Origin: Candidatus Omnitrophota bacterium
GTDB lineage: Bacteria > Omnitrophota > Gorgyraeia > JAHJTE01
NCBI GenBank assembly: GCA_040753675.1
Contig: JBFMEB010000006.1
Span: 4,561 to 68,560 of the forward strand
Reading direction: 5' to 3'
Length of the DNA stretch: 64,000 bases
Positions 4,875 to 37,641 of this stretch are shown in pieces. The notes beneath the pieces are model-generated. The model searched no databases, had not been told where the DNA came from, and was given only the letters and a program-made list of their open reading frames with translations. The position numbers and the translations under genes are program-made. Each line of letters starts with the position of its first letter. Position 1 is the first letter of the stretch.

Positions 4875-6945
4875 GCGCTTAGTTAAAGTAATTCTAATTG
4901 TTGTCTGTTTGGTTATTATTTTTGACACCTTCCTTTCTCTTTTCCTATTCCGTTACGTCCACAGAGTAATCAATAATATCGATCCCAAATTGGGGAAAAT
5001 CTATATCTCACAAGTTAGCATAGATTTCCTAAGGGGCATTGTTTTACAGGACGTCTCTATTGTGGATAATGCCACTCCACCCCAAATTTTGTTTCAGGCT
5101 AAAAAACTTAATTTAAAATTTGATCCCCTATCGATTTTAAATAGAGAATTAAATTTTAATAGAATAAAATGCGTTGGTTTAGATATCTATATAAATAAAG
5201 ATTCTCAGACTTTAAAAAAAATATCTTTAATCAGCAAGGCTGCCTATGAAGAATTCTTAAAAAACCAGATTCTGCCATTAGAGTTAGTCTTTAAAGACCC
5301 ATCGGTAAATTTTATTTCGAGTAAGTTTATAGTTGCAGATTTTTCGGGAGAAGAACCAGGGATATGGATTGTCCGGCTAAAAGGTATGGCCGCTTTGAGA
5401 AATAAGAAAATTTTTTCGCAAGGCTCAGTTAATTTGGAACACAAACTTTCCGCAACCTCTTCCTTTATAAATCTTTTTAGAAATCAGTTTTTAAGCCAGG
5501 ATTTTGACTACCGGTTAATTGCCAACTTGAAAAAAAATGATTTCTTGATTGAAGATTTTGATATTATGGTCGGTTATGACCATATTAAAGGTCAGGCAAT
5601 TGTCAGTAATTTTACTACCTCCAAGCCTATTATTAATCTTATTGTTAATACCAGCAATCTTTCCATTGAGAATATAACTTCCTTAATTAAAGATTTTGAT
5701 ACGCGCGGCTCATTCAATTTATCTGCTGCGGCAAGGGGACCATTAGACAATCTGAAGTTTATTATTACCTTAAATTTCCTTGGTTGCACTTTTCGTTATT
5801 CCTCATTTCCGGTATTAAAAAATATTGTAGGAAAGGTTAAATTGACAGAAAGCGCACTTACCATTGATAATCTTTTCTTGATTTTTAATGACGTGGGCCT
5901 GAACGTTAACTCTCGAATAAGCCAGAAACAGGATACAACACAGATTAGCGCTGATATCAGTATAAAACCGTCCCAGGCGCAAATAGCTTTTTTGCCGCGT
6001 TCGATAAATATTAATTCTAACTGGCAGAGGAAGAATGTTGGTTTGGGTGGCAACTTATCTTTCACCTATGAGGCAACCGACAACAACAAGTATTCAATGA
6101 ATCTGGAAGAGGTGGCTTTTCTAAAAGAAAATGTTGGAGGGTCGCTGAAAGCTAAGAAAGTAATTTTTAGACAGATTCCCTTGCAGGGAGATAAAGAAAA
6201 AAAATTTGATTTGTCTGATTTTGCAGCAAAGTTTGAGCCAAAAAAAGGAGAATTTAACTTAAGCGATATAAAGGTATCTGGTTTTTCTGGTCAGATAAGT
6301 GCTAATATTTATCTTGGCGGCGCTGGCAGTTATCGTTATGCGTCATCTTTACTTGCGCAGAATCTGGATGCTTCACAGATACAAGCCGGGCTGGCAGTGC
6401 CTTATAATCTTTTAGGATTTATTTGGGCAAAAATATTTTCCAGTTCGACAGACAGGGATTTCACTAAAGGTATCTTATTAATAAAAAAAGGCAAATTACA
6501 GGAGACTGCTTTATTATTGTCTTTAGCCGAATATCTGAATATCAATTCCTTAAAAGCGATTGATTTCGATGAGATGCAGTTACGATTTTCATTTTTAAAA
6601 AACGGCGTATTTAGATACGGTTTGAAAAGCAAAGGTAAAGACGTAGTGTTGGATGCCAATTTCCAGATTGGTAAGGACCAGCAGCTCTCTGGTTATTTCA
6701 ATGCAAACATTAACCATACCTTATTGATGGAATCGAATAAATTGCGTAGATTGCTAAAGATGATTGGCGATGAGTCGGCTTCTGTAGATTTTCCTTTTAA
6801 ATTAGGAGGCACGATACATAAGCCAAGATTAAGCTGGTTACGTAATGATTTTAAACGTTCACTTGAACACGTAATTCCCGCTTGGTATAGGCAGGGAATG
6901 CAGAAAGGTATTGACGATGCAGTTGAGGAAATGTTCAAGGAGTAA
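4843..6945 (+). CDS. AsmA-family large outer-membrane-biogenesis-like protein
   Basis: N-terminal TM followed by a long beta-rich body. The C-terminal FPFKLGGTIHKPRLSW resembles the AsmA C-terminal motif. No secretin motifs. Confidence 0.5.
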   Translation: MANFYSASPFKRLVKVILIVVCLVIIFDTFLSLFLFRYVHRVINNIDPKLGKIYISQVSIDFLRGIVLQDVSIVDNATPPQILFQAKKLNLKFDPLSILNRELNFNRIKCVGLDIYINKDSQTLKKISLISKAAYEEFLKNQILPLELVFKDPSVNFISSKFIVADFSGEEPGIWIVRLKGMAALRNKKIFSQGSVNLEHKLSATSSFINLFRNQFLSQDFDYRLIANLKKNDFLIEDFDIMVGYDHIKGQAIVSNFTTSKPIINLIVNTSNLSIENITSLIKDFDTRGSFNLSAAARGPLDNLKFIITLNFLGCTFRYSSFPVLKNIVGKVKLTESALTIDNLFLIFNDVGLNVNSRISQKQDTTQISADISIKPSQAQIAFLPRSININSNWQRKNVGLGGNLSFTYEATDNNKYSMNLEEVAFLKENVGGSLKAKKVIFRQIPLQGDKEKKFDLSDFAAKFEPKKGEFNLSDIKVSGFSGQISANIYLGGAGSYRYASSLLAQNLDASQIQAGLAVPYNLLGFIWAKIFSSSTDRDFTKGILLIKKGKLQETALLLSLAEYLNINSLKAIDFDEMQLRFSFLKNGVFRYGLKSKGKDVVLDANFQIGKDQQLSGYFNANINHTLLMESNKLRRLLKMIGDESASVDFPFKLGGTIHKPRLSWLRNDFKRSLEHVIPAWYRQGMQKGIDDAVEEMFKE

Positions 6946-6948: not shown

Positions 6949-8643
6949 ATGATGCAAGAGAAAAAATCGCTGGGCTTTAGTTTGGTTGAAGCAGGATTAT
7001 TAGGCTCGGAAGAGTTAAAATTAGCGGAAAAAGAGGCGAAAAAAAATAGCATATCCCTGCGAAAGGCTATTCTAAAATTGGGAATTATTGAGGAAGATGC
7101 GCTGGTTTCATTCTTAAGCACTCATTTAGGTATTCCCAGTATAGACTTGAGCACTTATTTGATAGACCCGGCAATTTTGCAGCATGTGCCAAAAGATTTG
7201 GCTGAAAAATATGACCTTATTCCGGTTTTTAAAATTGGCGATACATTGACATGTGCAATGTCTGAGCCCTTAAATATCGTTGCCCAGGATGAAATCCGCC
7301 TAAAGACAGGTTTTAATATCGAAGCAGTTGTGGCAAGGGAATCGGATATAAAAAGCGCAATCTATTCTTATTATGGAGAGAAGACTTCTGTAGAAGACGT
7401 AGTGAAGGAATTAGAACAAGTTGAGGCAGATTTAAAATCAGGCAGAGAGATAGCAGCTAAACGGCTTAAAGATTTAGCCCAAGAGCCTCCGCTTATCCGT
7501 TTGGTGAACCTTTTGATTATGAAGGCAATTAAAGAAGAAGCCAGCGATATTCATATCGAACCAGAAGAAAATACCCTGCGGGTGCGTTATCGTATTGACG
7601 GCATATTGCATGATGTTGAAGCCCCGCCAAAACATTTGCAGCAGGCAATAATTTCTCGTATTAAGATACTTTCTAATCTGGATATTGCAGAGCGCAGGAT
7701 TCCTCAGGATGGACGGTTTCAGGTTAGCGCAGAAAATAGGCGCATTGATATCCGAGTCTCTTGCGTGCCGACAATTTTTGGCGAAAATATTGTATTGAGA
7801 TTACTTGATACCACACACCTAAAGTTGAATTTGCAGGATTTAGGCTTTGAGAGCGAGGAATTGGAAAAATTCGAACGCTTTATCCAGAGGCCCCATGGAA
7901 TTATCTTGGTAACTGGACCTACCGGCAGTGGAAAGACAACGACTTTATATGCAGCTTTAAATAAGATAAATTCCGCAGAAAAAAATATTATTACTATTGA
8001 AGACCCTGTTGAATATCGTCTGGCAGGAGTGCGCCAGATTCAAGTTAATCCTAAGGTGAATCTTACCTTTGCTAATGGCTTACGTTCGATATTGCGCCAG
8101 GATCCTGATATAATAATGGTAGGAGAAATTCGCGATAGAGACACTGCCGAGATTGCTATACATGCTGCTTTAACCGGTCATTTAGTGCTTTCGACATTGC
8201 ACACTAATGATGCCGCCGGAGCAATTACCCGGCTTATTGACATGGGTATAGAACCATTTCTGGTCGCCTCATCGGTTATCGGCATAGTTGCACAAAGATT
8301 AGTGAGAACAATCTGTTCTGGTTGCAAAGAAGCATATCAAGTCTCAGATAAAATATTAGAAAGTATTGAGTTGGAGAGAACTGTTAGAGGTCCTGTATAT
8401 TTTCATCACGGTAGAGGCTGTAATAAATGCCTTAATACTGGCTTTCACGGTCGAACAGCAATTTTTGAACTCTTATTAATGGAAGAAACAGTCAGAGAAT
8501 TAACGCTAAAAAAGGCATCGACAAGTGCTATAAATCAAGCCGCAATTAAATTAGGTATGCGTAATTTAAGAGAATCTGGCTTAAAAAAGGTCAGTAGCGC
8601 TATAACCACTATTGAAGAATTAATGCGGGTTACTGAGGAGTAA
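6949..8643 (+). CDS. pilB: Type IV pilus / T2SS assembly ATPase (PilB/GspE/MshE family) with an MshEN-type N-terminus
   Basis: Tandem T2SSE_N domains. Walker A GPTGSGKTTT, Asp and His boxes. Tetracysteine CSGCKEAY...CNKCLNTGF. The N-terminus SLGFSLVEAGLLGSEELKLA fits the MshEN c-di-GMP-binding motif. Confidence 0.9.
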   Translation: MMQEKKSLGFSLVEAGLLGSEELKLAEKEAKKNSISLRKAILKLGIIEEDALVSFLSTHLGIPSIDLSTYLIDPAILQHVPKDLAEKYDLIPVFKIGDTLTCAMSEPLNIVAQDEIRLKTGFNIEAVVARESDIKSAIYSYYGEKTSVEDVVKELEQVEADLKSGREIAAKRLKDLAQEPPLIRLVNLLIMKAIKEEASDIHIEPEENTLRVRYRIDGILHDVEAPPKHLQQAIISRIKILSNLDIAERRIPQDGRFQVSAENRRIDIRVSCVPTIFGENIVLRLLDTTHLKLNLQDLGFESEELEKFERFIQRPHGIILVTGPTGSGKTTTLYAALNKINSAEKNIITIEDPVEYRLAGVRQIQVNPKVNLTFANGLRSILRQDPDIIMVGEIRDRDTAEIAIHAALTGHLVLSTLHTNDAAGAITRLIDMGIEPFLVASSVIGIVAQRLVRTICSGCKEAYQVSDKILESIELERTVRGPVYFHHGRGCNKCLNTGFHGRTAIFELLLMEETVRELTLKKASTSAINQAAIKLGMRNLRESGLKKVSSAITTIEELMRVTEE

Positions 8644-16190: not shown

Positions 16191-16283
16191 CGCAGATGAT
16201 CGCTGACAAATGAACAGATGATCACTGATTTTTAATTTTTATCTGTGTTCATCTGTCGCTTTTCAATCTGTGTTCATCTGTGT
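16191..16283. repeat. 'cagatga/catctgt' palindromic repeat element
   Basis: cgcagatgatcgctgacaaatgaacagatgatcactga ... atctgtgttcatctgtcgcttttcaatctgtgttcatctgtgtaca. The motif acgcagatgatcactgatg recurs at 39439-39460. Confidence 0.75.
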
Positions 16284-16297
16284 ACAAGGAGATTTTA

Positions 16298-18001
16298 ATG
16301 ACAGAAGAACGGAAAAATTTAGAGAAAATACTTTTAGAAGATAAACTCATTTCTCCAGAGAGGTTAAATCTTGCAAAAGAGGAAGCAAAAAAGAATGCAG
16401 TCTCTTTAGAGAAGATATTGATTAAGCAGGGAGTGGTAAATAATGAACAGATAGCTACGATTATTGCTGGTGAAATGGGTATACCTTTTATTGATGTATC
16501 GGATTATGCTATTGATAAAGAGGTTTTGAAGCTTATCCCCAAAGATTTGGCGAGCAAATATACCCTTATCCCGCTGTTTAAAGTCGGCAGCAGCCTGACC
16601 ATAGCTATGGCAGATCCCTCGGATATAGTTGCCATAGATGAGGTTCATTTAAAAAGTAAATGTGATATTGATGCAGTCTTAGGAATTGCCGGCGCGATTA
16701 CTAATGCCATTGATACTTATTACGGGGTTAAGGGCGATATAGAGCATATTGTCGAAGATATTAGCGAGGAAGATGTTAATAAAATGGTAGAGAAACTTAA
16801 AGAGTCGCAAGATACCAAAGATTCTTCTCAGTTAGCCGAGGAGGCGCCATTAATCCGCCTAGTGAATCTTTTGATTGTTCAGGCCGTAAAAGAAAGGGCA
16901 TCTGATATTCATATTGAGCCGGATGATAAACAATTGAGGGTGCGTTTCCGCATTGATGGCGTTCTTTATGAGAGACCTTCACCGCCTCAATTTTTGACAA
17001 ACGGAATTATATCTCGTGTAAAGATTCTTTCCAAAATGGATATTGCTGAAAAAAGAAAGCCGCAGGACGGAGGATTCGGTATTAAGGTCGGTAAAAAAGA
17101 TATAGATTTAAGAGTCTCAACTTATCCGACAATTTATGGCGAAAATGTGGTGATGAGACTTTTGGATAAAAGTAGCCTATTAATGGGCTTGGAAGATTTA
17201 GGGCTTTCTGACCAGGCCCTTAAAACCTTTAGCGAAATGATTCGCATGCCTTATGGCATAATTCTGGTAACTGGGCCGACAGGAAGCGGTAAAACCACTA
17301 CATTATACGCAACTTTACAGACAATAAATACTGTTTCAAAAAACATAATCACCTTGGAGGATCCAGTTGAATATAGGTTACCTCTAATAAGGCAGGCACA
17401 GGTTAACCCTAAAGCAGGCCTTACCTTTGCCTCTGGCTTAAGGTCAATATTAAGACAGGACCCCAATGTTATCATGGTTGGCGAAATCCGAGATTTAGAG
17501 ACAGTGGAGATTGCTGTGCATGCTGCTTTGACTGGCCAGTTGGTTTTCAGCACCTTGCATACCAACGATGCTCCTGGAGCAATAACCAGAATGATAGATA
17601 TGGGCGTAGAGCCATTTTTAATTGCCTCATCAGTTATTGGTGTAGTAGCCCAGCGGCTTGTTAGAGTATTATGCCCTGACTGTAAAGAAGCCTATAAACC
17701 TTCAGAGCAATTATTATCTAGTTTAGGTTTAGCGCCGGGTAAGGATTATAAGTTTTTTAAGGCACGTAGTTGTCGGCATTGTTATCAGATGGGCTATAAA
17801 GGCAGAATTGGAATCTATGAAGTTATGGTTATGAACGAAGCTCTTAGGAAACTTGCAATCAGTAAGGCATCCAGCGATGAAGTTATGCGCGAGGCGAGAA
17901 AATCAGGACTCGTAAGTTTGAGAGAAGACGGATTGCTTAAGGCGATAAATGGTATAACATCTATCGAAGAGGTTCTAAGAGTAACGCAGATGGAAGTGTG
18001 A
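16298..18001 (+). CDS. pilB: Second PilB/GspE/MshE-family assembly ATPase. ATG 16298, with AAGGAG 6 nt upstream
   Basis: GPTGSGKTTT Walker A. CPDCKEAY...CRHCYQMGY tetracysteine. MshEN-like N-terminal repeats (LEKILLEDKLISPERLNLA; SLEKILIKQGVVNNEQI). Confidence 0.9.
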   Translation: MTEERKNLEKILLEDKLISPERLNLAKEEAKKNAVSLEKILIKQGVVNNEQIATIIAGEMGIPFIDVSDYAIDKEVLKLIPKDLASKYTLIPLFKVGSSLTIAMADPSDIVAIDEVHLKSKCDIDAVLGIAGAITNAIDTYYGVKGDIEHIVEDISEEDVNKMVEKLKESQDTKDSSQLAEEAPLIRLVNLLIVQAVKERASDIHIEPDDKQLRVRFRIDGVLYERPSPPQFLTNGIISRVKILSKMDIAEKRKPQDGGFGIKVGKKDIDLRVSTYPTIYGENVVMRLLDKSSLLMGLEDLGLSDQALKTFSEMIRMPYGIILVTGPTGSGKTTTLYATLQTINTVSKNIITLEDPVEYRLPLIRQAQVNPKAGLTFASGLRSILRQDPNVIMVGEIRDLETVEIAVHAALTGQLVFSTLHTNDAPGAITRMIDMGVEPFLIASSVIGVVAQRLVRVLCPDCKEAYKPSEQLLSSLGLAPGKDYKFFKARSCRHCYQMGYKGRIGIYEVMVMNEALRKLAISKASSDEVMREARKSGLVSLREDGLLKAINGITSIEEVLRVTQMEV

Positions 18002-18040: not shown

Positions 18041-18421
18041 ATGGCAATACAAAATTCAAAATCTGATGACTTTAAAGAGAAATTTAAACAAAGACTATAT
18101 GATTTTGTATTAAAGCTTATCAATTTTTTAGATAGTTTAGCTAAAGATAATGTTTCAAGAAGAATTAGTGACCAATTGTTAAGGAGCGGAACAAGTATTC
18201 TTGGGAATTATATTGAAGGTAAATCAGCAAGCAGTAAAAAAGAGTTTACTAATTTTTTTAATACTTCCTTGAAGTCGGCTAATGAAAGCAAATTATGGCT
18301 TACATTATTGCGTGATGCTAAACGAGCTAATACTGAAGAAGTAACTTGGTTTCTGAAAGAACTCGATGAGATTTCTAATATTTTTGCATCAAGCATTTTG
18401 ACACTTAAAGGTAAAAAGTAA
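18041..18421 (+). CDS. Four-helix-bundle protein (TIGR02436 / '23S rRNA intervening sequence protein' family)
   Basis: DQLLRSGTSILGNYIEGKSASSKKEFTNFFNTSLKSANESKLWLTLL matches the family core. The gene sits between pilB2 and pilC2 inside a caaaat/attttg palindrome (18002-18040 and 18422-18482). Confidence 0.75.
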   Translation: MAIQNSKSDDFKEKFKQRLYDFVLKLINFLDSLAKDNVSRRISDQLLRSGTSILGNYIEGKSASSKKEFTNFFNTSLKSANESKLWLTLLRDAKRANTEEVTWFLKELDEISNIFASSILTLKGKK

Positions 18422-20252: not shown

Positions 20253-21116
20253 ATGATGGTAAGCGTAATTATTCCCGTATATAATGAAGAGAAAAATCTT
20301 CAGTATGTTATTAGCTCAATAAAGTCAGCGCTCAAGGGTAATTTTGAGCTATTGATAATTAATGATGGCTCAACTGATAAGTCAGCAGATATAATTAGAA
20401 ATAGTGGAGCAGTTTTGGTTAATCAGCCCTATCGCATGGGCAACGGCGCTGCCATAAAACGGGGTATCAGAGAAGCCAAAGGCGATATATTAGTATTTAT
20501 GGATGGGGACGGCCAGCATAAGGCAGAGGATATTCATCGGCTATTAGAGCACATTGAGGAGTTTGATATGGTTGTAGGGGCAAGGACTAATAACTCGAAT
20601 ATGTGTTTACATCGAAGGCTGGCAAATAAAATTTATAACTGGCTGGCTTCTTATGTGACTAGCTTCCGGATAGAAGATTTGACCTGTGGGTTTCGCGCCA
20701 TCAAAAAAACCTTGGCTTTAAAGTTTGTTTATTTACTGCCAAACACCTTTTCCTATCCTACGACTTTAACCTTGGCAGTGCTTAAGACAGGCAGGAGTAT
20801 AAAGTATATCCCCATAACTACTACTGCCAGAGAAGGAAAGAGCAAGATTAACACAATCTACGACGGAGCAGGTTTCTTGTTAATTCTATTTAAGATTGCG
20901 ACATTATTTTCGCCATTTAAAATATTTCTGCCCATAAGTATATTATTTTTTATTTTGGGCCTTATAAATTATGCCTATACCTTTTTTACGGCTCATAGGT
21001 TTACGAGCATGTCAGCCCTTCTTTTTACAACTTCTGCAATTATTTTTATGCTTTCTTTGGTTTCTGAGCAGATTTCGCTATTGAGAATGCAACACAGTGA
21101 AGACAATAGAGAATAG
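20253..21116 (+). CDS. GT2 family glycosyltransferase, polyprenyl-phosphate sugar synthase (DPM synthase / ArnC-like)
   Basis: VSVIIPVYNEE...DGSTD...FMDGDGQH DxD region, plus C-terminal TM helices typical of DPM1/ArnC-type enzymes. Confidence 0.8.
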   Translation: MMVSVIIPVYNEEKNLQYVISSIKSALKGNFELLIINDGSTDKSADIIRNSGAVLVNQPYRMGNGAAIKRGIREAKGDILVFMDGDGQHKAEDIHRLLEHIEEFDMVVGARTNNSNMCLHRRLANKIYNWLASYVTSFRIEDLTCGFRAIKKTLALKFVYLLPNTFSYPTTLTLAVLKTGRSIKYIPITTTAREGKSKINTIYDGAGFLLILFKIATLFSPFKIFLPISILFFILGLINYAYTFFTAHRFTSMSALLFTTSAIIFMLSLVSEQISLLRMQHSEDNRE

Positions 21117-22626
21117 TTTAATTATAATTATAATTTGTTTTATCTCTTTAGTCTATTTACTTTGCTTAGATACCCAACTCGGTAGTTTTGGCGGTGATAA
21201 TGCTCAATATATCATCTTGGCAAAGGCGTTAAGTTCAGGCCAAGGCTATCGAGCAATAAACTTTCCTCATCAGCCTCCTTACACTCTTGTCCCTCCGGTT
21301 TTTGCTCTAATGCTTTCACCGATTGTGTATTTTTTTGGATACAATTTTTTCCTAATGCATATTTTAATCTTGGTCTTAGCAGCCTTTTCTTTAGTTTTTC
21401 TATTTCTACTTCTTAAAAACAAAGTGAACTTGGCTACAGCCAATTTAATAGTCTTTTTAACTGGCGGTCACTTTCTTTTGCTTACTTTGGCATTAACGCA
21501 GATATTGACCGAAATTCCTTACATCTTTTTTAGTTTAGTTGCTTTTTTTAGTTTTGAGCAATTTATTAAGTTAAAAGAGAAAAAATTTTTTTATATTTTT
21601 GTATGTATAATAGCAACAGTTGCGGCGAGTTTGACTCGAACTATAGGGATAATCATTCCTCTGAGTTTTATAACCCTTGGCTTAATTAAGTTAAAGAAAG
21701 AAGAGAGGGCAAAGGCAGTTATTTGTTTAGGACTTTTGTTGCTCATACCAGGTTTAATTTGGTTTGCCAGAAATATTTTAGTTGCTTCTCCCTTTGAACC
21801 TGAGGGAATTTTTCAGCAATTCTTTATGTTAGATTTATATGATGATGATGCTGGCAATATTGGTTTGACAAATTTATTCAATAGAATTTTTTTTAATGCT
21901 AAGGATTGTGCAGACTGGGCATTTAATTATGTATTTCCGGCATTTATTTTTTCGAAAGTACCGTTACCTTTCTTTGCTATATTAAGGGGATTGTTTATTC
22001 TCATTTTATGTCTGGGTCTCTGGCAGCATTTGCATAAGAAACTGAGCAGTTTAGAGATATACTTTTCGCTTTATATATTCTTCCTGCTTTTTTGGCATAT
22101 CTTTGAGATTGCCCGTTATTTACTGCCTGTGCAATTTTTATTATTTTTATATTTTTTTGAAGGCCTTAAGTATTTGGGCAATTTAAATCTTAAACCAAAG
22201 GCAAAAGGAATCTTGACGACTTTGGTTTATTTAATTATACTTTTAAGCCTTTTCTTGAATAGTATACACACCTACAGGACAATAAAAGACTATTGTTCTG
22301 CCCCAACAGATCATCGTCTAATAAATTTTCTAATTGCCAATAAATGGGTTAAGGCTAATACCGAGAAAGATGCTGTAATCTTGTCTCGCAAGCCTACTAT
22401 TACCTCCTTGTTTAGTGAACGACAGTCTCTAGGCTATCCATTTACCAAAGATGATAAAAGAATTATTGATTATATTAAGGCGCATGCAATTAAGTACATT
22501 ATTTTGGATGAGTATTTTAGAGAATCAGCTCGGTTTTTGGCTGTGGCAATTAAAAAAAATCTGCCTCTTTTTAAACTGAGATATAGGGTTTCTGATACTT
22601 TGGTTTTTGAATTTAAGCCAGATTAA
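21097..22626 (+). CDS. GT-C fold polytopic membrane glycosyltransferase (ArnT/PMT/TfpW-like)
   Basis: ~11 predicted TMs in the N-terminal two thirds and a soluble C-terminal domain. Directly follows the polyprenyl-P-sugar synthase. Confidence 0.55.
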   Translation: MKTIENSLIIIIICFISLVYLLCLDTQLGSFGGDNAQYIILAKALSSGQGYRAINFPHQPPYTLVPPVFALMLSPIVYFFGYNFFLMHILILVLAAFSLVFLFLLLKNKVNLATANLIVFLTGGHFLLLTLALTQILTEIPYIFFSLVAFFSFEQFIKLKEKKFFYIFVCIIATVAASLTRTIGIIIPLSFITLGLIKLKKEERAKAVICLGLLLLIPGLIWFARNILVASPFEPEGIFQQFFMLDLYDDDAGNIGLTNLFNRIFFNAKDCADWAFNYVFPAFIFSKVPLPFFAILRGLFILILCLGLWQHLHKKLSSLEIYFSLYIFFLLFWHIFEIARYLLPVQFLLFLYFFEGLKYLGNLNLKPKAKGILTTLVYLIILLSLFLNSIHTYRTIKDYCSAPTDHRLINFLIANKWVKANTEKDAVILSRKPTITSLFSERQSLGYPFTKDDKRIIDYIKAHAIKYIILDEYFRESARFLAVAIKKNLPLFKLRYRVSDTLVFEFKPD

Positions 22627-26703: not shown

Positions 26704-27075
26704 ATGCAGAGTTATAAAGATTTAGAAGTATATAAAATTTCGCATAAGTTAGCAATCGAAATTCATAAAATGACATTGGAATTACCTTATTTTGAAATGT
26801 ATGAGGAAGGCAGTCAAATAAGAAAATCTGCTAAAGCGATTCCAGCAAATATTGTTGAGGGATTTGGAAGGAAGAAATATCAGCAAGATTACTTGCGTTT
26901 TGTTATTATTGCTCATGCTTCCTGTAATGAGACAATAGAACATTTAGAAATTTTATTTGAAACAGGTTCTTTAAAAGATAGGGATAAATTCAATTATTTT
27001 CTAAAACAATATGATATCCTTGGCAGAAAACTTAATAAATTTATCCAAGCAATCGAAAAACAGCTGGAAATCTAA
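26704..27075 (+). CDS. Four-helix-bundle protein (23S rRNA IVS protein family), canonical member
   Basis: YKDLEVYKISHKLAIEIHKMT...IRKSAKAIPANIVEGFGRKKYQQDYLRFVIIAHASCNETIEHL is the classic family pattern. Confidence 0.85.
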   Translation: MQSYKDLEVYKISHKLAIEIHKMTLELPYFEMYEEGSQIRKSAKAIPANIVEGFGRKKYQQDYLRFVIIAHASCNETIEHLEILFETGSLKDRDKFNYFLKQYDILGRKLNKFIQAIEKQLEI

Positions 27076-27188: not shown

Positions 27189-28901
27189 ATGGCAAAGACT
27201 AAACGAAAAATTAAAGATAGGGCGACATGGCTTCTTACTCTTTATGAGATTGCCAGAGAAGTAAATTCTAATTTAGGTCTTAAGCATTGTCTTAATTCTA
27301 TTATTGATAACACAGTAAAACTTCTTAATGTGGAGAGAGCTTCTTTAATGCTCTTTGATAAGCAGAGAAAAGAATTGAAGATAGAGTCGGCAGTTGGCAT
27401 CAGCGCACAGATTATAAGAAAGGCAAGGGTTAAAGTAGGAGAAGGTGTTTCCGGCTGGGTAATGAAGACAGGAAAGGCACTTTTACTTAATGATATATCT
27501 AAAGATAGAAGATTTCGCCCAAGAGAAAAGGGGAGATATTACAATCAGTCGCTTTTAAGCGTGCCTTTAAAAGCGCGTGGAGAGGTAATCGGGGTCCTTA
27601 ATGTTAATAATAAACGCCGGAAGCAAGTATTTACCAGAGATGATTTAGAACTTCTAAGCGCCTTGGCTAATGAGGCTTCCATCGCTGTATATAATGCACG
27701 GCTTTATCAGCAATTGTTGAGCGTCAATGAACGCCTAAAAGAGTTAGATAGATTAAAGTCTGATTTTGTTTCGAATGTTTCTCACGAATTAGGCACCCCA
27801 TTAGCTACTTGCAGATACTTTACCTCTCTAATGCTAAAAGAATCAGCAGGACCGGTGAGCCAACAGCAAAGAGAATATCTGCAACTCATGGATTCTAATA
27901 TCGAGCGCCTGACTCGGTTGATAAATAATTTGCTTTCTCTTTCTCGGATTGAAGCTGGCAGGTTTGAGTTAAGACGCTCTATGGTAAATGTGGCAAATTT
28001 AAGCAAAGAGGTTTTGCGGACATTTGAAGGGCAGCTTAGCGAAAAACAAATAAACATTGAAGATAAGATTCCCCAGAATGTCCCGGAAGTCTATGCTGAT
28101 TCTGAAAGAATAATTGAAGTTTTTACTAATTTAATTGGCAATGCTATTAAATTTAGCCCTAAGAACAGCGTAATTTCATTAAACGCCGCAACTATTACTA
28201 AAGAATTGTCAGCTGGAGGAGAGAGGAGATATTTACTGTCTAGCGTATCAGATACAGGAAAAGGTATTGCTGCCTCTGACTTAGATAAGATTTTCAATAA
28301 ATTCGAACAATTAAAAACTGACTTACCCCAACGAGAAAGGGGCACTGGTTTGGGCTTAGCCATTTGTAAAGAAATCGTTAAATTGCATAAAGGTGATATT
28401 TGGGCAGAATCGGAATTAGGTAAAGGCAGTACCTTTTTCTTTGCTCTTCCTATATACAACGAGGAAGAATATTTCTTAGAGCGGATTTTAGACGAAATAA
28501 AGCGGTCACGAATTAACCGTAGCCCGGTATCATTAGTTGTTTTAGCTATTAAGAATTTCCCAGACACTAAAGCTGGTTTGTCAGCCGATGAGCTTTTAAG
28601 TTTATTATTTGATTTGGAGACTATTGCCAAGAAAACCGTGCGTCGGCCTAATGATATAGTGATAAGATTTAAAAAAGGCGAGATACTAGCCATCTTAGCT
28701 GATACTCACAAAGAAGGTGCCTATGCTTTGGGCGGCCGCGTAAGAGATATGCTTCAGAACTATGAATTTAAAAGTTCTCGAGGACCGATAAAATTACATT
28801 TTGAAATTGGCATAGTAACTTACCCTGATGATGCGCCTAATGAATTAGAGTTATTGCGTCAAGTGGATAAGATATTGGAAGAAAAAGGAGTCAGACGGTG
28901 A
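27189..28901 (+). CDS. Sensor histidine kinase: GAF, HisKA, HATPase_c and a C-terminal degenerate GGDEF domain
   Basis: GAF (aa ~20-170). H-box VSHELGTPL. G-boxes. The C-terminal ~140 aa align to the GGDEF C-terminal half, with GGDEF replaced by FKKGE but an RxxD (RPND) at the I-site position. Confidence 0.8.
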   Translation: MAKTKRKIKDRATWLLTLYEIAREVNSNLGLKHCLNSIIDNTVKLLNVERASLMLFDKQRKELKIESAVGISAQIIRKARVKVGEGVSGWVMKTGKALLLNDISKDRRFRPREKGRYYNQSLLSVPLKARGEVIGVLNVNNKRRKQVFTRDDLELLSALANEASIAVYNARLYQQLLSVNERLKELDRLKSDFVSNVSHELGTPLATCRYFTSLMLKESAGPVSQQQREYLQLMDSNIERLTRLINNLLSLSRIEAGRFELRRSMVNVANLSKEVLRTFEGQLSEKQINIEDKIPQNVPEVYADSERIIEVFTNLIGNAIKFSPKNSVISLNAATITKELSAGGERRYLLSSVSDTGKGIAASDLDKIFNKFEQLKTDLPQRERGTGLGLAICKEIVKLHKGDIWAESELGKGSTFFFALPIYNEEEYFLERILDEIKRSRINRSPVSLVVLAIKNFPDTKAGLSADELLSLLFDLETIAKKTVRRPNDIVIRFKKGEILAILADTHKEGAYALGGRVRDMLQNYEFKSSRGPIKLHFEIGIVTYPDDAPNELELLRQVDKILEEKGVRR

Positions 28902-31842: not shown

Positions 31843-32402
31843 TGGATAAAGAGAAGAAAGAATTGATACTAGCACCCATACTTGTTATTATAGCCATACT
31901 ATTTGTCTTATCTACCGTAAAAAAAGTTATGCGCTCTTTTCCGCAACGCAAAGTGGGAATGCCTTCTCCGGCTGTTATAGATAAATCAAAATTACAAAAG
32001 CATACTCCTGTTCCTTTAAGCCCACCACGATTTGAAAAAGTTGTCCCCTCAGAGATAAATGCTGCGCCAGCCGAGGAAGCCAAATTTGATATTGACACTA
32101 TAGACTGGGGCAGAGACCCTTTTACTTTTGATCTGGCACTTCTTTTTAGCTCAGATAAAGATCAGGGGCACTTAGCAAAATTAGAACAACTTTCCAGGCT
32201 TAAACTCACCGGCATGATTATTTCTAAAGACAACCCGAAGGATTCAATTGCGGTAATTAACGGCGAAAACTTGAAAGTAGGAGAAATGATCTCCGGATTT
32301 ATATTGAAAGAGGTTAAGACTAATTCTGTTGTTCTGGCGTGGGATAGCGAAGAATTTACATTGATGCTATGGGAAGAAGAATCCCAAAAGAAAGAAAGGT
32401 AA
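31842..32402 (+). CDS. PilP-like protein (module 2)
   Basis: N-terminal TM. C-terminal GMIISKDNPKDSIAVINGENLKVGEMISGFILKEV resembles the C-terminus of 15742. Confidence 0.4.
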   Translation: MDKEKKELILAPILVIIAILFVLSTVKKVMRSFPQRKVGMPSPAVIDKSKLQKHTPVPLSPPRFEKVVPSEINAAPAEEAKFDIDTIDWGRDPFTFDLALLFSSDKDQGHLAKLEQLSRLKLTGMIISKDNPKDSIAVINGENLKVGEMISGFILKEVKTNSVVLAWDSEEFTLMLWEEESQKKER

Positions 32403-33103
32403 ATAAGCCTGCCATAATTAGCCCCGAGACACTACGAGCTATTTCTAAGATAAGCGAAGCTATTATCTCTGATTTGTATCTGGAAGATATACTGCGTTTA
32501 ATTGTGACGGTCAGCGCGAGAATAATGAATTCAAAGATTTGTTCATTGATGTTATTAGATCCTCAAAAAAATGAGTTGGTAATTCGTGCCACTCAATCGG
32601 TTAGTCCCTTGTATAACAAAAAGCCGAATTTAAAAGTTGGTGTCGGCGTTGCTGGTTTAGTAGCTAAAGAAAACAAGCCGATGATTATCAGTGATGTTAA
32701 AACAGATCCGCGTTATTTAAATAGAGAAATTGCCAAAAAAGAAAATTTATGTTCCCTCTTAAGCGTGCCCTTAAGAGTTAAAGGCAAGGTCATCGGTGTT
32801 TTTAATTTATACACCTCTAAGCCACATAAATTCAGCGATGCTGAAGTTAAGGTTTTAACCAGCGTGGCTAATCAGGCAGCGATTGCTATTGAGCACGCTA
32901 GACTTATGGTAGAGACTGATGTAATTAAAGAGGAATTGGCAACGCGAAAAGCAGTAGAGCGGGCAAAGGGACTACTTATGCGCCAGGAAGGCTTAGATGA
33001 AGAAGGTGCCTTCAGAAAGATTCAGAAGACAAGTATGGATACACGCAGGTCGATGCGTGAAATAGCCGAAGCAATTATTTTAACAAGCCAAATGAAGAAA
33101 TAG
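32369..33103 (+). CDS. GAF-ANTAR RNA-binding antiterminator-like regulator
   Basis: GAF domain (aa ~25-175). C-terminal ANTAR (ELATRKAVERAKGLLMRQEGLDEEGAFRKIQKTSMDTRRSMREIAEAII). Confidence 0.8.
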   Translation: MGRRIPKERKVNKPAIISPETLRAISKISEAIISDLYLEDILRLIVTVSARIMNSKICSLMLLDPQKNELVIRATQSVSPLYNKKPNLKVGVGVAGLVAKENKPMIISDVKTDPRYLNREIAKKENLCSLLSVPLRVKGKVIGVFNLYTSKPHKFSDAEVKVLTSVANQAAIAIEHARLMVETDVIKEELATRKAVERAKGLLMRQEGLDEEGAFRKIQKTSMDTRRSMREIAEAIILTSQMKK

Positions 33104-33137: not shown

Positions 33138-35420
33138 ATGGTCAAAAATAATATTTATTCAGAAACAGTTAAGCTTCTTGGGCTTACCGTCAAGAAGGTC
33201 TCCCTTTATTCGCGAAACCATCCCATCGTAACAGCATCAATGAATCAGCTATTCCAACATTTACAACAGATACTTTCTGAAATTTCTCAGGTTACAATTT
33301 CCACCAAAGGAGAAGAGATATTTTTTAATGACACCTCTTTGCTGCGCAAAGAATTAGGAACACAAGAATTAATTGAAAAATTAAAACAATTCCGCATAGA
33401 TAGTATTTCTTTTAGTCCTGGCTTAGAATTGAAAGAATTGGAACATCTGATTCTTGTTTTAAGTAGCGGCAAGAAAATAGACGAAAACCAACAGCAACTC
33501 AAAGATAATTTTTTCAGCAAAGGTTTTGCTCATATACGTGCCAATCTTATTCGCTACGAAAAAGTAACCGAAGGACAAAGAGTGGTAGCGAAAGACGCTA
33601 TCTTAGAGGCAGAAAGTTTTATAAAAAAGGAAGCCCAAGAGCCAGATAAACCGGGAGAAATAATTCTTAGCGATTTTCTTAGTGGAAAAGTATTAGATCT
33701 GCCTTTAGAGAAATATCAACAGGACATTTTATCAAAATTTATAAATAATCCTGCGAGTTTTGCCCAGCCAATTTTACAAGCAGCAGTTTCCCGTGGAAAC
33801 TTAGGTGAGATTTTAGATAAATTTAAGGAATTCATTTTAGATGCGTTAACAAATGAACTTTGCGCTAAAAAAAGAAAACCAGAAAGATTAGTTTCTTCTT
33901 TTGAAAAAAGTATCGCTTCTGGCTTAACTGAGCCACAGATAGCTGAAAAACTCAAAATAAAAAAAGACGAATTAACCGAAATTTTCTCAAAATTTAACGA
34001 TGAACTAAAACTTCATATGTTGATTAAGTACTTCCAGGATAGTAGGCCTAATAATGATAAATTTATAGAGCGCTCGAGTAAATTGCTAACTGACAACGAA
34101 GAATTGAATAGATTAAAAGATAAATTGAAACAAGCGTTATTGGATGGCGGCTTGACAGATGTTGATAGCGATGCCTTGCTTGGACAGATTGATAATACCT
34201 TGGTGAAAGAGGAAAAAATTACCATCTCAAAGATAGAATATGAGCATTTGAAAAATAAGGCAGAAATTTTTGATAAGACATTGCTGGAAAGGGTAAAACA
34301 GGTAACCCTGGAGCTGGAAAAGAAAACTAAGCGCCTAGGGGATGAGAAAGAGCGGGTGGATACTGTAATCCGCAATCTCGCCGAGGGCCTAATTGTGGTT
34401 GATAAAGATGGCAAAGTGGTGATGATTAATCCCGCCGCTGAGCAATTATTAGGAATTTCCAAAGAGAATAAGATAGGCAAACATATACTAGAAGATATCA
34501 GTAGCCATCAACTTGTGGCTTTAACAAGGGGAAATTTAGCTGACGAAGGTGGGCAAGTCAGCAAAGAAATAGAGCTTAAAAGTAAAGACGAGAAGACCCA
34601 GAAGATATTGCGGGCAAGCACGGCAGTGGTAGAGAATGAAGACGGTAATACGGTAGGTATGGTTATGGTTTTAAGTGACATTACTCGACAGAAACAAGTA
34701 GAAAAAATGAAGTCAGACTTTTTCTCACATATGAGCCACGAATTACGTACCCCCATTATTGCGGCACAAAAGTCTATCTCGCTTTTGCTAACTCAGACAG
34801 CAGGAAATATTAATGATGACCAGAATAAATTTTTAGGTATTGCCAATTCTAACCTCGTTCGGTTATCGCGATTAATTGACAATATACTGGATATGTCAAA
34901 AATTGAAGCTGGCAAGCTAAAGATTAATTCCATTAAATTCGATATTGCTGAGCTTATTAGAGATATCACCAATTCTCTTTCTAGTTGGGCTACTGATAAG
35001 CATATCCAGCTGGTTGCTGATGTGCCTGGTAAAGCAATCGAGATTGAGGCAGATAAAGAGCGGATTAGCCAGGTTCTGACGAATTTTATAGGTAATGCAC
35101 TTAAATTTACACCTCAGGAAGGCAAAATCACAGTTTCAGGTAAGGAACTAGTTAAAGATGATATAGAATCAATCCAGGTTAGCGTAACAGATAGTGGCAT
35201 CGGCATTGAAAAAAATGACCTGGAGAGAATATTTAATAAGTTTGAACAAGTAAGCCTATCATCTCCCATAGGAGTAAGTGGAACCGGTTTAGGATTATAT
35301 ATATGTAAAGAAATTATCCAATTACATAATGGCAAGGTTTGGGCTGAAAGTGAAGTCGGGAAAGGCAGTGCTTTTAGCTTTATTATTCCAAAGAAATTCG
35401 TAAATGAAGCCACAACTTAG
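33138..35420 (+). CDS. Large PAS-domain sensor histidine kinase
   Basis: ~400-aa N-terminal helical region. PAS (NLAEGLIVVDKDGKVVMINPAAEQLLGI). HisKA (MSHELRTPI). HATPase_c (GTGLGLYICKEII). Confidence 0.85.
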   Translation: MVKNNIYSETVKLLGLTVKKVSLYSRNHPIVTASMNQLFQHLQQILSEISQVTISTKGEEIFFNDTSLLRKELGTQELIEKLKQFRIDSISFSPGLELKELEHLILVLSSGKKIDENQQQLKDNFFSKGFAHIRANLIRYEKVTEGQRVVAKDAILEAESFIKKEAQEPDKPGEIILSDFLSGKVLDLPLEKYQQDILSKFINNPASFAQPILQAAVSRGNLGEILDKFKEFILDALTNELCAKKRKPERLVSSFEKSIASGLTEPQIAEKLKIKKDELTEIFSKFNDELKLHMLIKYFQDSRPNNDKFIERSSKLLTDNEELNRLKDKLKQALLDGGLTDVDSDALLGQIDNTLVKEEKITISKIEYEHLKNKAEIFDKTLLERVKQVTLELEKKTKRLGDEKERVDTVIRNLAEGLIVVDKDGKVVMINPAAEQLLGISKENKIGKHILEDISSHQLVALTRGNLADEGGQVSKEIELKSKDEKTQKILRASTAVVENEDGNTVGMVMVLSDITRQKQVEKMKSDFFSHMSHELRTPIIAAQKSISLLLTQTAGNINDDQNKFLGIANSNLVRLSRLIDNILDMSKIEAGKLKINSIKFDIAELIRDITNSLSSWATDKHIQLVADVPGKAIEIEADKERISQVLTNFIGNALKFTPQEGKITVSGKELVKDDIESIQVSVTDSGIGIEKNDLERIFNKFEQVSLSSPIGVSGTGLGLYICKEIIQLHNGKVWAESEVGKGSAFSFIIPKKFVNEATT

Positions 35421-35491: not shown

Positions 35492-35920
35492 ATGGATAAA
35501 AAAACACCAAATGCAAATAGCGACATAGACATACTACTTATTGATGATGAGAAAGATTTTGTTTCAACAATGGAATTTTGGCTTAAAGGTCAAGGCTACA
35601 AAGTTCAGACTGTCTTTAATGGCCAAGATGCTTTAAAAATAATAAAGGTGCAGGCTCCACATATTGTTTTTCTCGATATAAATATGCCGGTTATGGACGG
35701 TATTGAGACCTTAAAAAGGATTCGGCAGATTGATAGCGAGCTACCGGTAGTTATGATTACTGCCCATGATACTGACGAGAACAGAAAGGAGGCTTATAAA
35801 TTGAAAGCCAATGCCTTTTTTGATAAGTCAAAAGACTTCTATGAAGCAGACCATATTATAAAATCAATATTGCATTTTTTTGCTAAGGGCAAAAAAGACA
35901 ACAATAAAAAGGGCAATTGA
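35492..35920 (+). CDS. Single-domain response regulator (CheY-like) with a basic C-terminal tail
   Basis: ILLIDDEKDF...HIVFLDINMPVMDG...T..K. Confidence 0.85.
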   Translation: MDKKTPNANSDIDILLIDDEKDFVSTMEFWLKGQGYKVQTVFNGQDALKIIKVQAPHIVFLDINMPVMDGIETLKRIRQIDSELPVVMITAHDTDENRKEAYKLKANAFFDKSKDFYEADHIIKSILHFFAKGKKDNNKKGN

Positions 35921-35942: not shown

Positions 35943-37160
35943 ATGCCAGAGCTGAAAGATAAAAAAATACTACTCGCCTCAAGCGATACAAATTGCGCTG
36001 AGATAATTATTTTATTGCTTAAAAGCTGGGGTTATGCTTCGTCTTGGATAAAAGAATCCAAGGAGGTAATTGAGGCTATCTCAAAATTGCAACCAGACTT
36101 AATTATAGTTGATTCTAGTTTAGGCGGGACAGATCCCTTTAATCTTATCAAAGAAATAAAGGCAGATTACCACAATGGTCATATACCTATACTAATGATA
36201 TTAGAAAAGAAGAATGTGCGCCGAGATATTTTAGAGATTGAACAAGGCCTGGATGATTACCTGACCAAGCCGCCTGATCCTATTGATTTAGAGGTGCGTC
36301 TGGAAATGGCGCTTCGTAGAACCGAGCATCATTTTTTTGCTAACGCCCTGTCAAAGTTACCTGGCAGCCGGATGTTAGAAAAAATTATCCAGCAAAAACT
36401 TGAGCATAAAGAAATATTTTCATTTCTTTACTGCGATATAAATAATTTTAAATCCTTCAACGATAAATACGGTTTTGAGCGCGGCGATGCAGTTATAATG
36501 CAGACGGCACATATTATTACTAATGCAGTGAAGCTATTCGGTAGCACAAATGATTTCGTCTTTCACATTGGAGGAGATGATTTCGTCATACTTACCTCAA
36601 GTGTATCTGAGGCAGCAGTAACTAAATATATAATTGATGAATTTGATAAGTTGATTCTTTTTCATTATGCCCCTATAGATAGGGACAGAGGTTTTATAAG
36701 GATTAGAGATAGGCAAGGAAAGATTGTCAATTTTCCCCTAATGGCTATATCTATTGCAATTGTGAATAATGTAGATAGACAGATTAATAGTTTGATTGAA
36801 TTTGTTGAGATAGCCTTTGAAATTAAACGCTATCTAAAACAAGACAAGCATAGTTCTAGTCTGGTTAATAGAAGAAAAGCGAGATACGATTACGAGATTA
36901 AGAAAGAAGACGAATTAAAACAGGAAGCCAGAGTCAGTAGCCTTAAAAAAAGACAGATATATAGGCCTCTTGGCCAAATACTCCTAGAGAAAAACTTAAT
37001 AAATAATCAACAATTGGAAAGCGCTCTTATTAAACACTGGAGTTCTAACCGTCGTCTGGGGCAGGTGTTAGTGGATATGAATCTTATTGATTCTAAACAG
37101 TTAGAGCAAATCTTTAAAAAGAGCCCTAAACATTCGCAAGCCCACTATGTTGGAGCATAA
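35943..37160 (+). CDS. Receiver, GGDEF (GGDDF variant) and C-terminal MshEN-like c-di-GMP-binding module
   Basis: REC (DLIIVDSSLGG). GGDEF core YCDINNFKSFNDKYGFERGD...FHIGGDDFVIL. C-terminal tandem 24-aa motifs PLGQILLEKNLINNQQLESALIKH and RLGQVLVDMNLIDSKQLEQIFKK fit RLGxxLLxxGLIxxxxLxxxLxxQ. Confidence 0.75.
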   Translation: MPELKDKKILLASSDTNCAEIIILLLKSWGYASSWIKESKEVIEAISKLQPDLIIVDSSLGGTDPFNLIKEIKADYHNGHIPILMILEKKNVRRDILEIEQGLDDYLTKPPDPIDLEVRLEMALRRTEHHFFANALSKLPGSRMLEKIIQQKLEHKEIFSFLYCDINNFKSFNDKYGFERGDAVIMQTAHIITNAVKLFGSTNDFVFHIGGDDFVILTSSVSEAAVTKYIIDEFDKLILFHYAPIDRDRGFIRIRDRQGKIVNFPLMAISIAIVNNVDRQINSLIEFVEIAFEIKRYLKQDKHSSSLVNRRKARYDYEIKKEDELKQEARVSSLKKRQIYRPLGQILLEKNLINNQQLESALIKHWSSNRRLGQVLVDMNLIDSKQLEQIFKKSPKHSQAHYVGA

Positions 37161-37641
37161 TTTTATGGAAATAAAAATTTACGGCGATCCTATATTGCGA
37201 AAGAAATGTTTTACGGTTAAAGAAATAGGCGAGGGAGAACTGCGTATCTTTGATGAAATGCTGCAGGAGATGCGCAAAAAAGGCGGCGTTGGCTTAGCTG
37301 CTTGCCAAGTAGGCATTAATAAACAGATGCTTGTGGTTGATGTGGCAGGTAAGATTTTAAAGTTAGCTAACCCAAAGATACTGAAGCGCCAGGGGGCTTT
37401 AGCTATTGAAGAAGGATGTCTAAGTTTACCTGAAATTCTAATTAAAGTTAAACGAGCAAAGAAGATAAACTTAGAAGCTATTAATGAATTAAACCAGAAA
37501 ATTTCACTAACTTGCGAAGATATTTTAGCTATTGTTTTGCAGCATGAGATTGACCACTTAGAAGGCAGGTTAATAATCGATTATCTTCCCTGGTATAAAA
37601 AGATTAAGGCAATAAGAAAATTGAAAGCAAAAAAAGCTTAG
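37147..37641 (+). CDS. def: Peptide deformylase. Likely true start ATG 37165, MEIKIYGDP
   Basis: GVGLAACQVG, EGCLSLPE and QHEIDHLEG motifs. Confidence 0.85.
   Translation: MLEHNFMEIKIYGDPILRKKCFTVKEIGEGELRIFDEMLQEMRKKGGVGLAACQVGINKQMLVVDVAGKILKLANPKILKRQGALAIEEGCLSLPEILIKVKRAKKINLEAINELNQKISLTCEDILAIVLQHEIDHLEGRLIIDYLPWYKKIKAIRKLKAKKA

Follow-up and report, generated by a model that had tools for sequence, protein, structure and literature searches.

Diguanylate cyclases are normally controlled by an N-terminal sensor together with product inhibition at the I-site, an RxxD motif that lies five residues before the signature and is common, though not universal, in these enzymes. In the cyclases PleD, WspR and DgcR, which join a receiver (REC) domain to a GGDEF domain, the alpha4-beta5-alpha5 face of the receiver serves dimerisation. 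Omnitrophota are an uncultured, small-celled phylum whose members are thought to depend on pili and hosts. MshE binds cyclic di-GMP (c-di-GMP) mainly through a triangular Leu cluster and, in each of two motifs, through the backbone amides of a Gly and of the residue after it; the Leu-Gly backbone amides read the guanine (PMC5013675). The partners of MshEN in the catalogue of 2016 are T2SSE, GT2, REC, HD-GYP, CheA, CheX, adenylate cyclase, kinase, M23 and TrxB. Here we describe a gene in a stretch of 64,000 nucleotides (nt) from a Candidatus Omnitrophota bacterium (contig JBFMEB010000006.1, positions 4,561 to 68,560; called the window below). The open reading frame (ORF), at 35943..37160 of the plus strand in the ORF list, encodes 405 residues that comprise a REC domain, a GGDEF-type domain with the signature GGDDF and a C-terminal MshEN_N module. 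A GGDEF-MshEN fusion is absent from the architecture table of the MshEN paper and none was found in the searchable literature, which supports the initial annotation of this DNA in calling the architecture unusual. The best-supported reading of the analysis is that an Omnitrophota-centred clade of a large, uncharacterised REC-GGDDF family has swapped its control input: the phospho-switch has decayed, and a receptor of the PilB/MshE type has been fused through a flexible linker.

The C-Terminal Tail as an MshEN_N Module

The protein is 100% identical to a GenBank entry, 'MAG: diguanylate cyclase [Candidatus Omnitrophota bacterium]' (MAG, metagenome-assembled genome). Its gene starts 22 nt past the stop of the preceding REC gene, with an AGGAA ribosome-binding site 5 nt before the ATG. 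The order REC-GGDDF-MshEN given in the initial annotation was confirmed by Pfam, by a curated hidden Markov model (HMM), by an ungapped alignment to MshE and by the predicted fold. A charged, variable linker without conservation (residues 312-341; 36876..36965, plus strand like all features of the gene below) leads to the tail, and the predicted local distance difference test (pLDDT) is about 50-54 at residues 311-340.

The whole tail module covers residues 342-394 (nt 36966-37124). It is made of motif 1 (residues 342-365, PLGQILLEKNLINNQQLESALIKH; 36966..37037), the spacer WSSNR (residues 366-370; 37038..37052), whose Trp366 is conserved in 118 of 120 relatives, and motif 2 (residues 371-394, RLGQVLVDMNLIDSKQLEQIFKKS; 37053..37124), the two motifs being placed by NF053729, alignment and motif scoring. 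The two tandem 24-residue motifs described earlier are thus present, but the spacer had been quoted as WSSN with one Arg dropped. It has the canonical 5 residues and not 4, and motif 2 has 24 residues of which the last is Ser. With 24+5+24 = 53 residues, the layout is that of an MshEN_N module.

The NCBIfam model NF053729 ('c-di-GMP_motif, MshE-related', 53 positions, cutoff 38) gave 54.1 bits for the full protein and 58.2 bits (E=5e-16) for the tail by itself, and the NfrB model also matches the tail (E=1e-8). The tail aligns without gaps and in register to residues 6-56 of Vibrio cholerae MshE, where c-di-GMP is bound in the crystal structure, and likewise without gaps to the GSPII domains of Thermus PilF. 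The predicted model of the isolated tail is a four-helix bundle (helices 343-349, 355-367, 372-378 and 384-393; pLDDT 81.6). In a fold search of about 350,000 PDB chains its top match was MshE with c-di-GMP (5HTL), at a root-mean-square deviation of 0.7-1.0 Å over 53-54 residues and a match probability of 1.00; c-di-GMP complexes of PilF GSPII-B came next, and N-domains of the MshEN/GSPII type occupied the top ranks. The E-values of this search are weak because the module is short. The curated HMM, the ungapped alignment to MshE and the predicted fold together identify the tail as an MshEN-type module.

The earlier statement that both motifs fit the MshEN consensus holds well, though not perfectly. 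Of the 11 positions that the strict consensus specifies, each motif agrees at 8, and the two are identical to each other at 11 of 24 positions. Motif 1 has Pro in place of Arg (position 1), Asn in place of Gly (position 10) and His (position 24); in motif 2 the departures are Asn in place of Gly (position 10), Phe (position 21) and Ser in place of Gln (position 24). Neither motif satisfies the relaxed pattern published for searches: motif 1 reaches 9/11 and motif 2 10/11, since both have Asn where position 10 calls for Gly/Ala/Ser and motif 1 also has His at position 24. Among the six-frame ORFs of the window (33,643 residues), the tandem score of 16/22 was reached by one other site only, the N-terminus of a genuine PilB-type ATPase, and the next-best score was 12. 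The tandem MshEN pattern is far beyond chance.

A search with Pfam PF05157 (T2SSE_N/MshEN), which had been set beforehand as a refuting test, gave no match to the protein or to the isolated tail. This result is uninformative as a refutation, because PF05157 mainly covers the other subdomain (the C-subdomain). In the two pilus ATPases of the window it matches residues 60-150, that is, after the c-di-GMP-binding helices, and according to the supplement of the MshEN paper, the Pfam model then current left out the first three helices. Relatives with a complete MshEN do match PF05157 in precomputed results, and a PilB model covers their residues 341-479. The term "stand-alone" receptor module did not survive, since the tail is fused and consists of the MshEN_N subdomain only: the MshEN_C subdomain (T2SSE_N1) is absent, and the protein ends 11 residues past motif 2. 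Weak matches of DUF4388, DUF2949 and FumaraseC_C to the tail were set aside as chance or helical similarity; fumarases also appeared low in the fold search.

A Tail-Bearing Clade in a Large REC-GGDDF Family

The best 120 relatives of the protein all carry GGDDF and the tail, in one of two forms: proteins of about 400 residues with MshEN_N only, and proteins of about 480 residues with a complete MshEN. In a scan of species representatives, with a single genome for each GTDB species, the matched stretches that encode a relative numbered at least 595, of which the best 80 loci were fetched. The tail is present in 8 of these, from six Omnitrophota MAGs (including Ca. Gygaella) and two MAGs labelled Planctomycetia. 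The other loci of the best 80 encode tail-less REC-GGDDF proteins of about 310 residues from Actinomycetota, Chloroflexota, Clostridia, Elusimicrobia, Eisenbacteria, Acidobacteria-related MAGs, Desulfovibrionales and others; a cultured member of the Chloroflexota, Herpetosiphon aurantiacus DSM 785, has such a gene at L035:5989-6939. Tail-less copies also occur in Omnitrophota. The tail is a lineage-specific addition in Omnitrophota plus the two Planctomycetia-labelled MAGs.

The wider family is large. With a profile of the GGDDF domain and 8,000 candidates scored, at least 7,982 protein clusters were found at E<=1e-10. Among the best 120 clusters listed, nearly all are REC+GGDEF proteins with generic names, and no NCBIfam equivalog or curated NCBIfam model claims REC-GGDDF proteins. 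A search of a library of 1.8 billion proteins with the tail only was dominated by multi-repeat MshEN_N proteins: among the 149 other closest representatives one had a GGDEF-type motif, itself a long-form family member, so that with two family members among the best 150 this search is no census of the family. Just one canonical GGDEF domain was found in the flanks of the loci, and an independent paralogue of the gene was looked for within the window and not found.

A Chloroflexia MAG encodes, at L028:2920-3321 on the minus strand, a stand-alone protein of 133 residues with an intact two-motif MshEN_N (MLGKILL...Q / RIGEIWVALG...Q), 0.8 kb from a tail-less REC-REC-GGDDF gene (L028:420-2132). In this single case, the stand-alone protein could be an unfused counterpart of the Omnitrophota fusion.

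Loss of the Receiver Phospho-Switch

The receiver domain (residues 8-130; 35964..36332) was delimited by Pfam Response_reg, by alignment to PleD and by clade statistics. Response_reg matches residues 10-119 with 46 bits (cutoff 30.2), and the predicted fold has a template modelling (TM) score of about 0.9 to receiver structures. The phospho-acceptor position Asp57 (codon 36111..36113) is kept, as are Lys109-Pro110. The acidic Mg2+ pair is replaced by Ser13-Ser14, and Leu87, which aligns opposite Thr83 of PleD, stands at the Thr/Ser position.

The canonical switch set is missing from the whole tail-bearing clade. In this clade the Thr/Ser position is Ile, Leu or Val; the acidic pair is Glu-His in the long forms, and the beta5 Lys is Lys in 62 of 73 short forms and Asn in 46 of 47 long forms. 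The tail-less relatives have textbook receiver motifs (ILVVDDDP, DLILLD, PIIMLTA and ADDYIxKPF). Response_reg scores follow the same division, with 46 bits for this protein, 57 for another member of the tail clade and 89-109 for canonical family members; receiver HMM scores overall are about 90-157 bits for canonical and 46-63 bits for tail-bearing proteins. The alpha4-beta5-alpha5 face (..DDYLTKPPDPIDLEVR..; E..EQG.DDY..KPPDPIDLE.R) is almost invariant in the tail-bearing clade. PF23198 and PF21695, which appear as precomputed matches in relatives, are merely receiver-like models that overlap REC and were discarded.

Among 111 sequences, the canonical receiver set was found in 65 of the 73 tail-less proteins and in 0 of the 38 tail-bearing ones. 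A neighbour-joining tree of 307 core columns, rooted at the midpoint and possibly biased by alignment to a profile built from the tail-bearing clade, placed the tail-bearing sequences in one clade of 40 leaves with two tail-less sequences nested within. Tail gain coincides with the loss of the receiver phospho-switch residues. The protein had been described as being under phosphorelay control, which is doubtful: besides Ser13-Ser14 and Leu87 in the protein itself, the tail-bearing clade as a whole has lost the switch residues that its tail-less relatives keep.

The two nested tail-less proteins (L012:5917-6981 and L040:5855-6865) are both from Omnitrophota and have degenerate receivers with 'PPDPIDL', which suggests either a secondary loss of the tail or a decay of the receiver that preceded tail gain. 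Two tail-less proteins from Desulfovibrionales (L082:1035-2546 and L084:5932-6930) also have degenerate receivers, with a Ser-Pro pair, Leu or Met for Thr and Arg for Lys. Since these tail-less members are degenerate too, loss of the phospho-switch seems to have occurred more than once in the GGDDF family.

The GGDEF-Type Domain

The GGDEF-type domain (residues 131-311; 36333..36875) was delimited by Pfam GGDEF, Foldseek, conservation and profile alignments. Pfam GGDEF matches residues 136-227 with 61.9 bits (cutoff 23.8), spanning positions 6-100 only of the 161 of the profile, and TIGR00254 gives 53.7 bits (cutoff 37.4). The predicted model of the full-length protein (pLDDT 85.5) matched WspR, DgcR and PleD in Foldseek, with TM scores of 0.62-0.79 for the isolated GGDEF domains.

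The signature GGDDF (residues 210-214; 36570..36584) had been noted as non-canonical, which it is. It is no one-off degeneration: all 120 close relatives have GGDDF, as does the GGDDF-core ORF in each of the 80 species-representative loci that were fetched, and the signature is invariant in a large REC-GGDDF family of many phyla. The metal-binding Asp165 and the guanine-binding Asn173 and Asp182 are invariant and align to the canonical D.D.FK..ND...G...GD, which argues for a GTP ligand and against a specificity change of the Hypr type. The I-site RxxD is absent. The protein has S201-T-N-D204 in its place; position 201 is Asn in 89 of 120 relatives, and Arg is never conserved there.

The C-terminal half of the domain is divergent. 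It has an inserted hairpin at about residues 244-265 (HY..DR.RG.I..DR.G) and ends with a conserved 'GS(N)...(N/D)RR', in which Ser304 (of GSN) presumably takes the place of the Arg of the canonical 'GRN' phosphate-binding motif, as we judge from its position. When the family profile was aligned to the PDB, the alignment stopped after helix alpha3 and the C-terminal half found no match. The relatives at loci L016-L086 share, family-wide, GGDDF, a His before GG, the inserted hairpin and a C-terminal half that cannot be aligned.

For activity with this signature there is one published precedent. The GGDDF domain of GSU1937 fused to GacA made cyclic GMP-AMP (cGAMP) and c-di-GMP in E. coli, and a GADDF mutant of GacA-GSU1937 was dead (PMC8835794). 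The same study notes that the usual action of the fourth signature residue is across the dimer and that other proteins with GGDDF seem to be inactive (PMC8835794). From the invariant residues, the fold and this precedent, the GGDEF-type domain of the present protein looks functional.

Residues for c-di-GMP Binding in the Tail

Several properties of the MshE site bear on whether the tail could bind c-di-GMP. The change G11I abolished binding in MshE, changes of Arg9 and Gln32 altered the affinity by no more than fivefold, and the contact from the C-subdomain was dispensable (PMC5013675); binding by MshEN_N alone is possible. The protein keeps the key contacts L343-G344, L372-G373, L358, L362, L387 and F391. 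Gly344 and Gly373 are invariant in 120 of 120 relatives, and both Leu-Gly pairs and the six hydrophobic residues of the cluster are invariant or conservatively kept in the tail-bearing family. Pro342, Gly344, Gln345, Leu358, Leu362 and His365 are invariant or nearly so among relatives, and position 351 in the turn of motif 1, Asn here, is variable. Pro at motif position 1 is tolerated, since PilF GSPII-C has Pro there and binds c-di-GMP with a dissociation constant of about 460 nM.

Genomic Context

The window holds two tandem clusters that resemble pilus or type II secretion system loci. The first has an ATPase gene (6949-8643) with PilC, a pilin, a T2SSK-like gene, PilMN and PilO. The second has an ATPase gene (16280-18001) with PilC, a pilin, glycosyltransferases, a TPR protein, a GAF-kinase with a degenerate GGDEF, a receiver, PilMN, PilO and a T2SSB-like gene. 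The PilB ATPase at 16280-18001 has Leu-Glu for Leu-Gly in both motifs and scores 31.4 with NF053729 (cutoff 38), and the ATPase at 6949-8643 has Leu-Arg in motif 2. Both pilus ATPases are predicted from these residues to be non-binders of c-di-GMP. Because their motifs have decayed, the tail described here is the only intact site of the MshEN type found in the window.

Past the second cluster come a GAF-ANTAR gene, a PAS kinase, a stand-alone receiver and the REC-GGDDF-MshEN_N gene, followed by housekeeping genes (def, PEPCK, serA and others). The PAS histidine kinase (33138..35420, plus strand; Pfam PAS, HisKA and HATPase_c) is syntenic in L005, the locus of a relative with 67% identity. The stand-alone receiver (35492..35920, plus strand) is canonical, with 98 bits for Response_reg and the motifs LLIDDE, FLDINMP, VVMITA and FFDKS; the PAS kinase is probably the partner of this adjacent receiver. 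The whole block from the GAF-kinase to our gene is syntenic in L005. Relatives at 45-51% identity lie in unrelated neighbourhoods without kinase or pilus genes nearby. The location at the end of a pilus and two-component island, as first annotated, is therefore correct for the window and conserved at 67% identity, but it is not conserved at 45-51%, and we rejected the conserved neighbourhood as a general functional argument because the context is common only to the 67%-identical relative.

The peptide deformylase gene def (37147..37641, plus strand) overlaps the 3' end of the gene by 14 nt (37147-37160), which suggests that a signalling gene is translationally coupled to a housekeeping gene; the def gene of L005 is found about 5 kb further downstream, with MarR and efflux genes between. 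Scans for promoters and terminators gave none above shuffled expectation. Other genes of the window were recorded in passing. In the GGDEF-like domain at the C-terminus of the GAF-HisKA-HATPase kinase (27189-28901), the signature has decayed to 'KKGEI' and DxFK is missing; L005 has this gene too. The GAF-ANTAR protein (32369-33103), a putative RNA-binding antiterminator between the pilus genes and the PAS kinase, is conserved in L005. Two members of the '23S rRNA-intervening sequence protein' family (PF05635) lie inside the second cluster, at 18041-18421 and 26704-27075, and another is found in the unrelated L006. Two ORFs inside the pilus clusters, 4843-6945 (700 residues) and 21097-22626 (509 residues), had no Pfam match at E<=1e-3.

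Proposed Mechanism and Alternatives

The analysis shows the domain composition and its conservation, the coincidence of tail gain with loss of the switch, and the missing I-site. From these we infer a protein in which binding, catalysis and their coupling would work as follows. The conserved alpha4-beta5-alpha5 face would make the degenerate receiver a constitutive scaffold for the dimer, the GGDDF domain would bind GTP and make c-di-GMP, and the tail would bind c-di-GMP and alter how the two catalytic domains meet. The result would be product feedback in place of the missing I-site and phospho-switch; its sign, as a negative homeostat or a positive switch, is not readable from sequence. Because the I-site is missing, regulation of the enzyme by c-di-GMP is the simplest function for the tail. 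To the proposal that the tail senses c-di-GMP and thereby regulates the GGDDF enzyme, in place of control by phosphorylation and by the I-site, we give about even chances.

A number of observations speak against this proposal. In the receiver, Asp57 is conserved in 119 of 120 close relatives, so the receiver may still be phosphorylated, and kinase and receiver genes stand just before the gene; the possible bias of the tree has been mentioned. In the catalytic domain, the signature is not [G/A/S]G[D/E]E[F/Y], its fourth residue being Asp213, and His208 replaces the canonical Arg two residues before GG; both residues are invariant across the broad GGDDF family. The single sequence of the C-terminal half had no match in the PDB, and an HH alignment to canonical GGDEF stopped at the hairpin with the C-terminal half unaligned. 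Because of Asp213, His208 and this divergent half, catalysis or the identity of the product could differ from those of canonical cyclases. In the tail, the turn Gly (position 10) and the Gln (position 24) are missing from both motifs (N351, H365, N380 and S394), and the protein is less canonical than its family at position 380 (Gly in 105 of 120 relatives, Asn here) and position 394 (Gln in 88 of 120, Ser here). His365, which is invariant in the family, stands at the position of MshE Gln32. PilF GSPII-A, the only studied domain with His at that position, is a non-binder. H33Q and R62Q were both present in each re-engineered version of GSPII-A that did bind, so that the contribution of the His by itself was never isolated; a perfect consensus was also insufficient in the intact GSPII-A domain. 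With these points set against the conserved contacts, we consider it fairly probable from the sequence comparisons that the tail binds c-di-GMP.

The tail may instead be a helical bundle derived from MshEN that no longer binds c-di-GMP and serves for docking or dimerisation, as do the N-domains of non-binding PilB/XpsE-type proteins. The departures from consensus in motif 1 (positions 1, 10 and 24) and in motif 2 (positions 10, 21 and 24) would agree with this, as would the parallel between the invariant His365 and His33 of GSPII-A; several MshEN domains are known non-binders, and the N-domain of X. citri PilB, a structural match to the tail, binds a PilZ protein. We think it improbable, however, since the Leu-Gly pairs and cluster hydrophobics are invariant in this family, yet decayed (LE/LE and LR) in the pilus ATPases of the window, while NF053729 scores above its curated threshold and the family consensus keeps Gly380 and Gln394. 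The model that came with the initial annotation, a diguanylate cyclase of the PleD/WspR/DgcR type activated through phosphorylation by the neighbouring PAS kinase and also binding its own product by the tail, is doubtful to the same extent. Its architecture and fold do match those cyclases, Asp57 is conserved, and the kinase and receiver genes lie immediately upstream with short intergenic gaps. Against these stand Ser13-Ser14 and Leu87 in a clade without the switch residues that tail-less relatives keep, the adjacent canonical receiver as the likelier partner of the kinase, and the absence of a kinase near most relatives.

The protein could also be a non-catalytic c-di-GMP effector or adaptor, which we regard as unlikely, though somewhat less so. 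Its GGDDF domain would bind only nucleotide or partners, the tail would read the c-di-GMP of other cyclases, and the output would be a protein-protein interaction, for example with the pilus machinery. Three catalytic-site positions are replaced family-wide (Arg by His208, Glu by Asp213 and, by the presumed mapping, probably the 'GRN' Arg by Ser304) in a domain whose C-terminal half is divergent. The gene closes the pilus and two-component island in the window and in the 67%-identical relative, and with the MshEN motifs of both pilus ATPases degenerate, another protein would have to read c-di-GMP. The strict invariance across phyla of GGDDF and of the metal and guanine residues nevertheless fits an enzyme better than a scaffold, the thousands of tail-less proteins of about 310 residues with canonical receivers resemble ordinary enzymatic response regulators, and the linkage to pili is lost in relatives at 45-51% identity. 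A further reading keeps the c-di-GMP switch of the tail in place of phosphorylation for the Omnitrophota branch and takes the GGDDF clade as an unconventional family with altered chemistry or a different product, since the changes of Arg to His and Glu to Asp at or next to the signature are invariant and the C-terminal half is remodelled. It would make the protein a messenger-to-messenger relay or a self-amplifying bistable switch, and we hold it to be quite improbable.

Significance and Comparison with Known Systems

The tail-bearing family appears to have dropped both of the usual controls of diguanylate cyclases and to have added in their place a receptor module dedicated to c-di-GMP. Should the tail bind c-di-GMP and control the enzyme as proposed, this would be a new feedback solution in c-di-GMP networks and a clear evolutionary case of a phosphorylation input replaced by a second messenger. 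The family is widespread in Omnitrophota and thus a candidate core signalling component of the phylum. REC-GGDDF response regulators, with thousands of clusters in many phyla, are a large blind spot. The interest of the locus lies in an architecture undescribed in the searchable literature and conserved across Omnitrophota, in a clean swap of input and in a large unstudied GGDDF family.

The best PDB matches of the protein, in sequence and in structure, are DgcR of Leptospira biflexa (6ZXB/6ZXM), PleD and WspR, which have the same order of REC and GGDEF, the same overall fold and the same metal and guanine residues. Those enzymes have canonical receivers, GG(D/E)EF, an Arg before GG and the RxxD I-site, whereas in the protein described here the receiver is degenerate, the signature is GGDDF, His208 stands before GG, the I-site is missing, the C-terminal half diverges and a tail is added. 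GSU1937 of Geobacter sulfurreducens, a Hypr GGDEF protein, has the same GGDDF and is reported to be active in vivo as a fusion construct. Unlike our protein, it is a membrane protein without receiver or MshEN, and it has the Ser that marks the cGAMP-making Hypr enzymes where the present family keeps Asp182.

The tail shares with MshE (5HTL) and PilF GSPII-B/C the 24+5+24 module, the Leu-Gly pairs, the hydrophobic cluster and the four-helix bundle. In MshE and PilF the module is N-terminal to the T2SSE ATPase and is followed by MshEN_C; here it is C-terminal to the GGDEF-type domain and has no MshEN_C. MshE and PilF have Gln/Gln at position 24, in contrast to His/Ser in our protein, in which the turn glycines are Asn. 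MXAN_2809 (MshEN-HD-GYP-REC-DUF4388) and Bd2402 (REC-MshEN_N-UNK) also join MshEN or MshEN_N to a turnover domain or a receiver, but with a phosphodiesterase or an unknown domain as the partner and not one of the GGDEF type. NfrB of E. coli, a c-di-GMP-activated glycosyltransferase, likewise carries a C-terminal module of the MshEN type on a catalytic domain, which the module regulates, although that domain is a GT2 glycosyltransferase and the MshEN is full. All the parts are thus known, and fusions of receptor and turnover domains have a precedent in MshEN-HD-GYP; the novelty is in the combination and not in a new kind of system.

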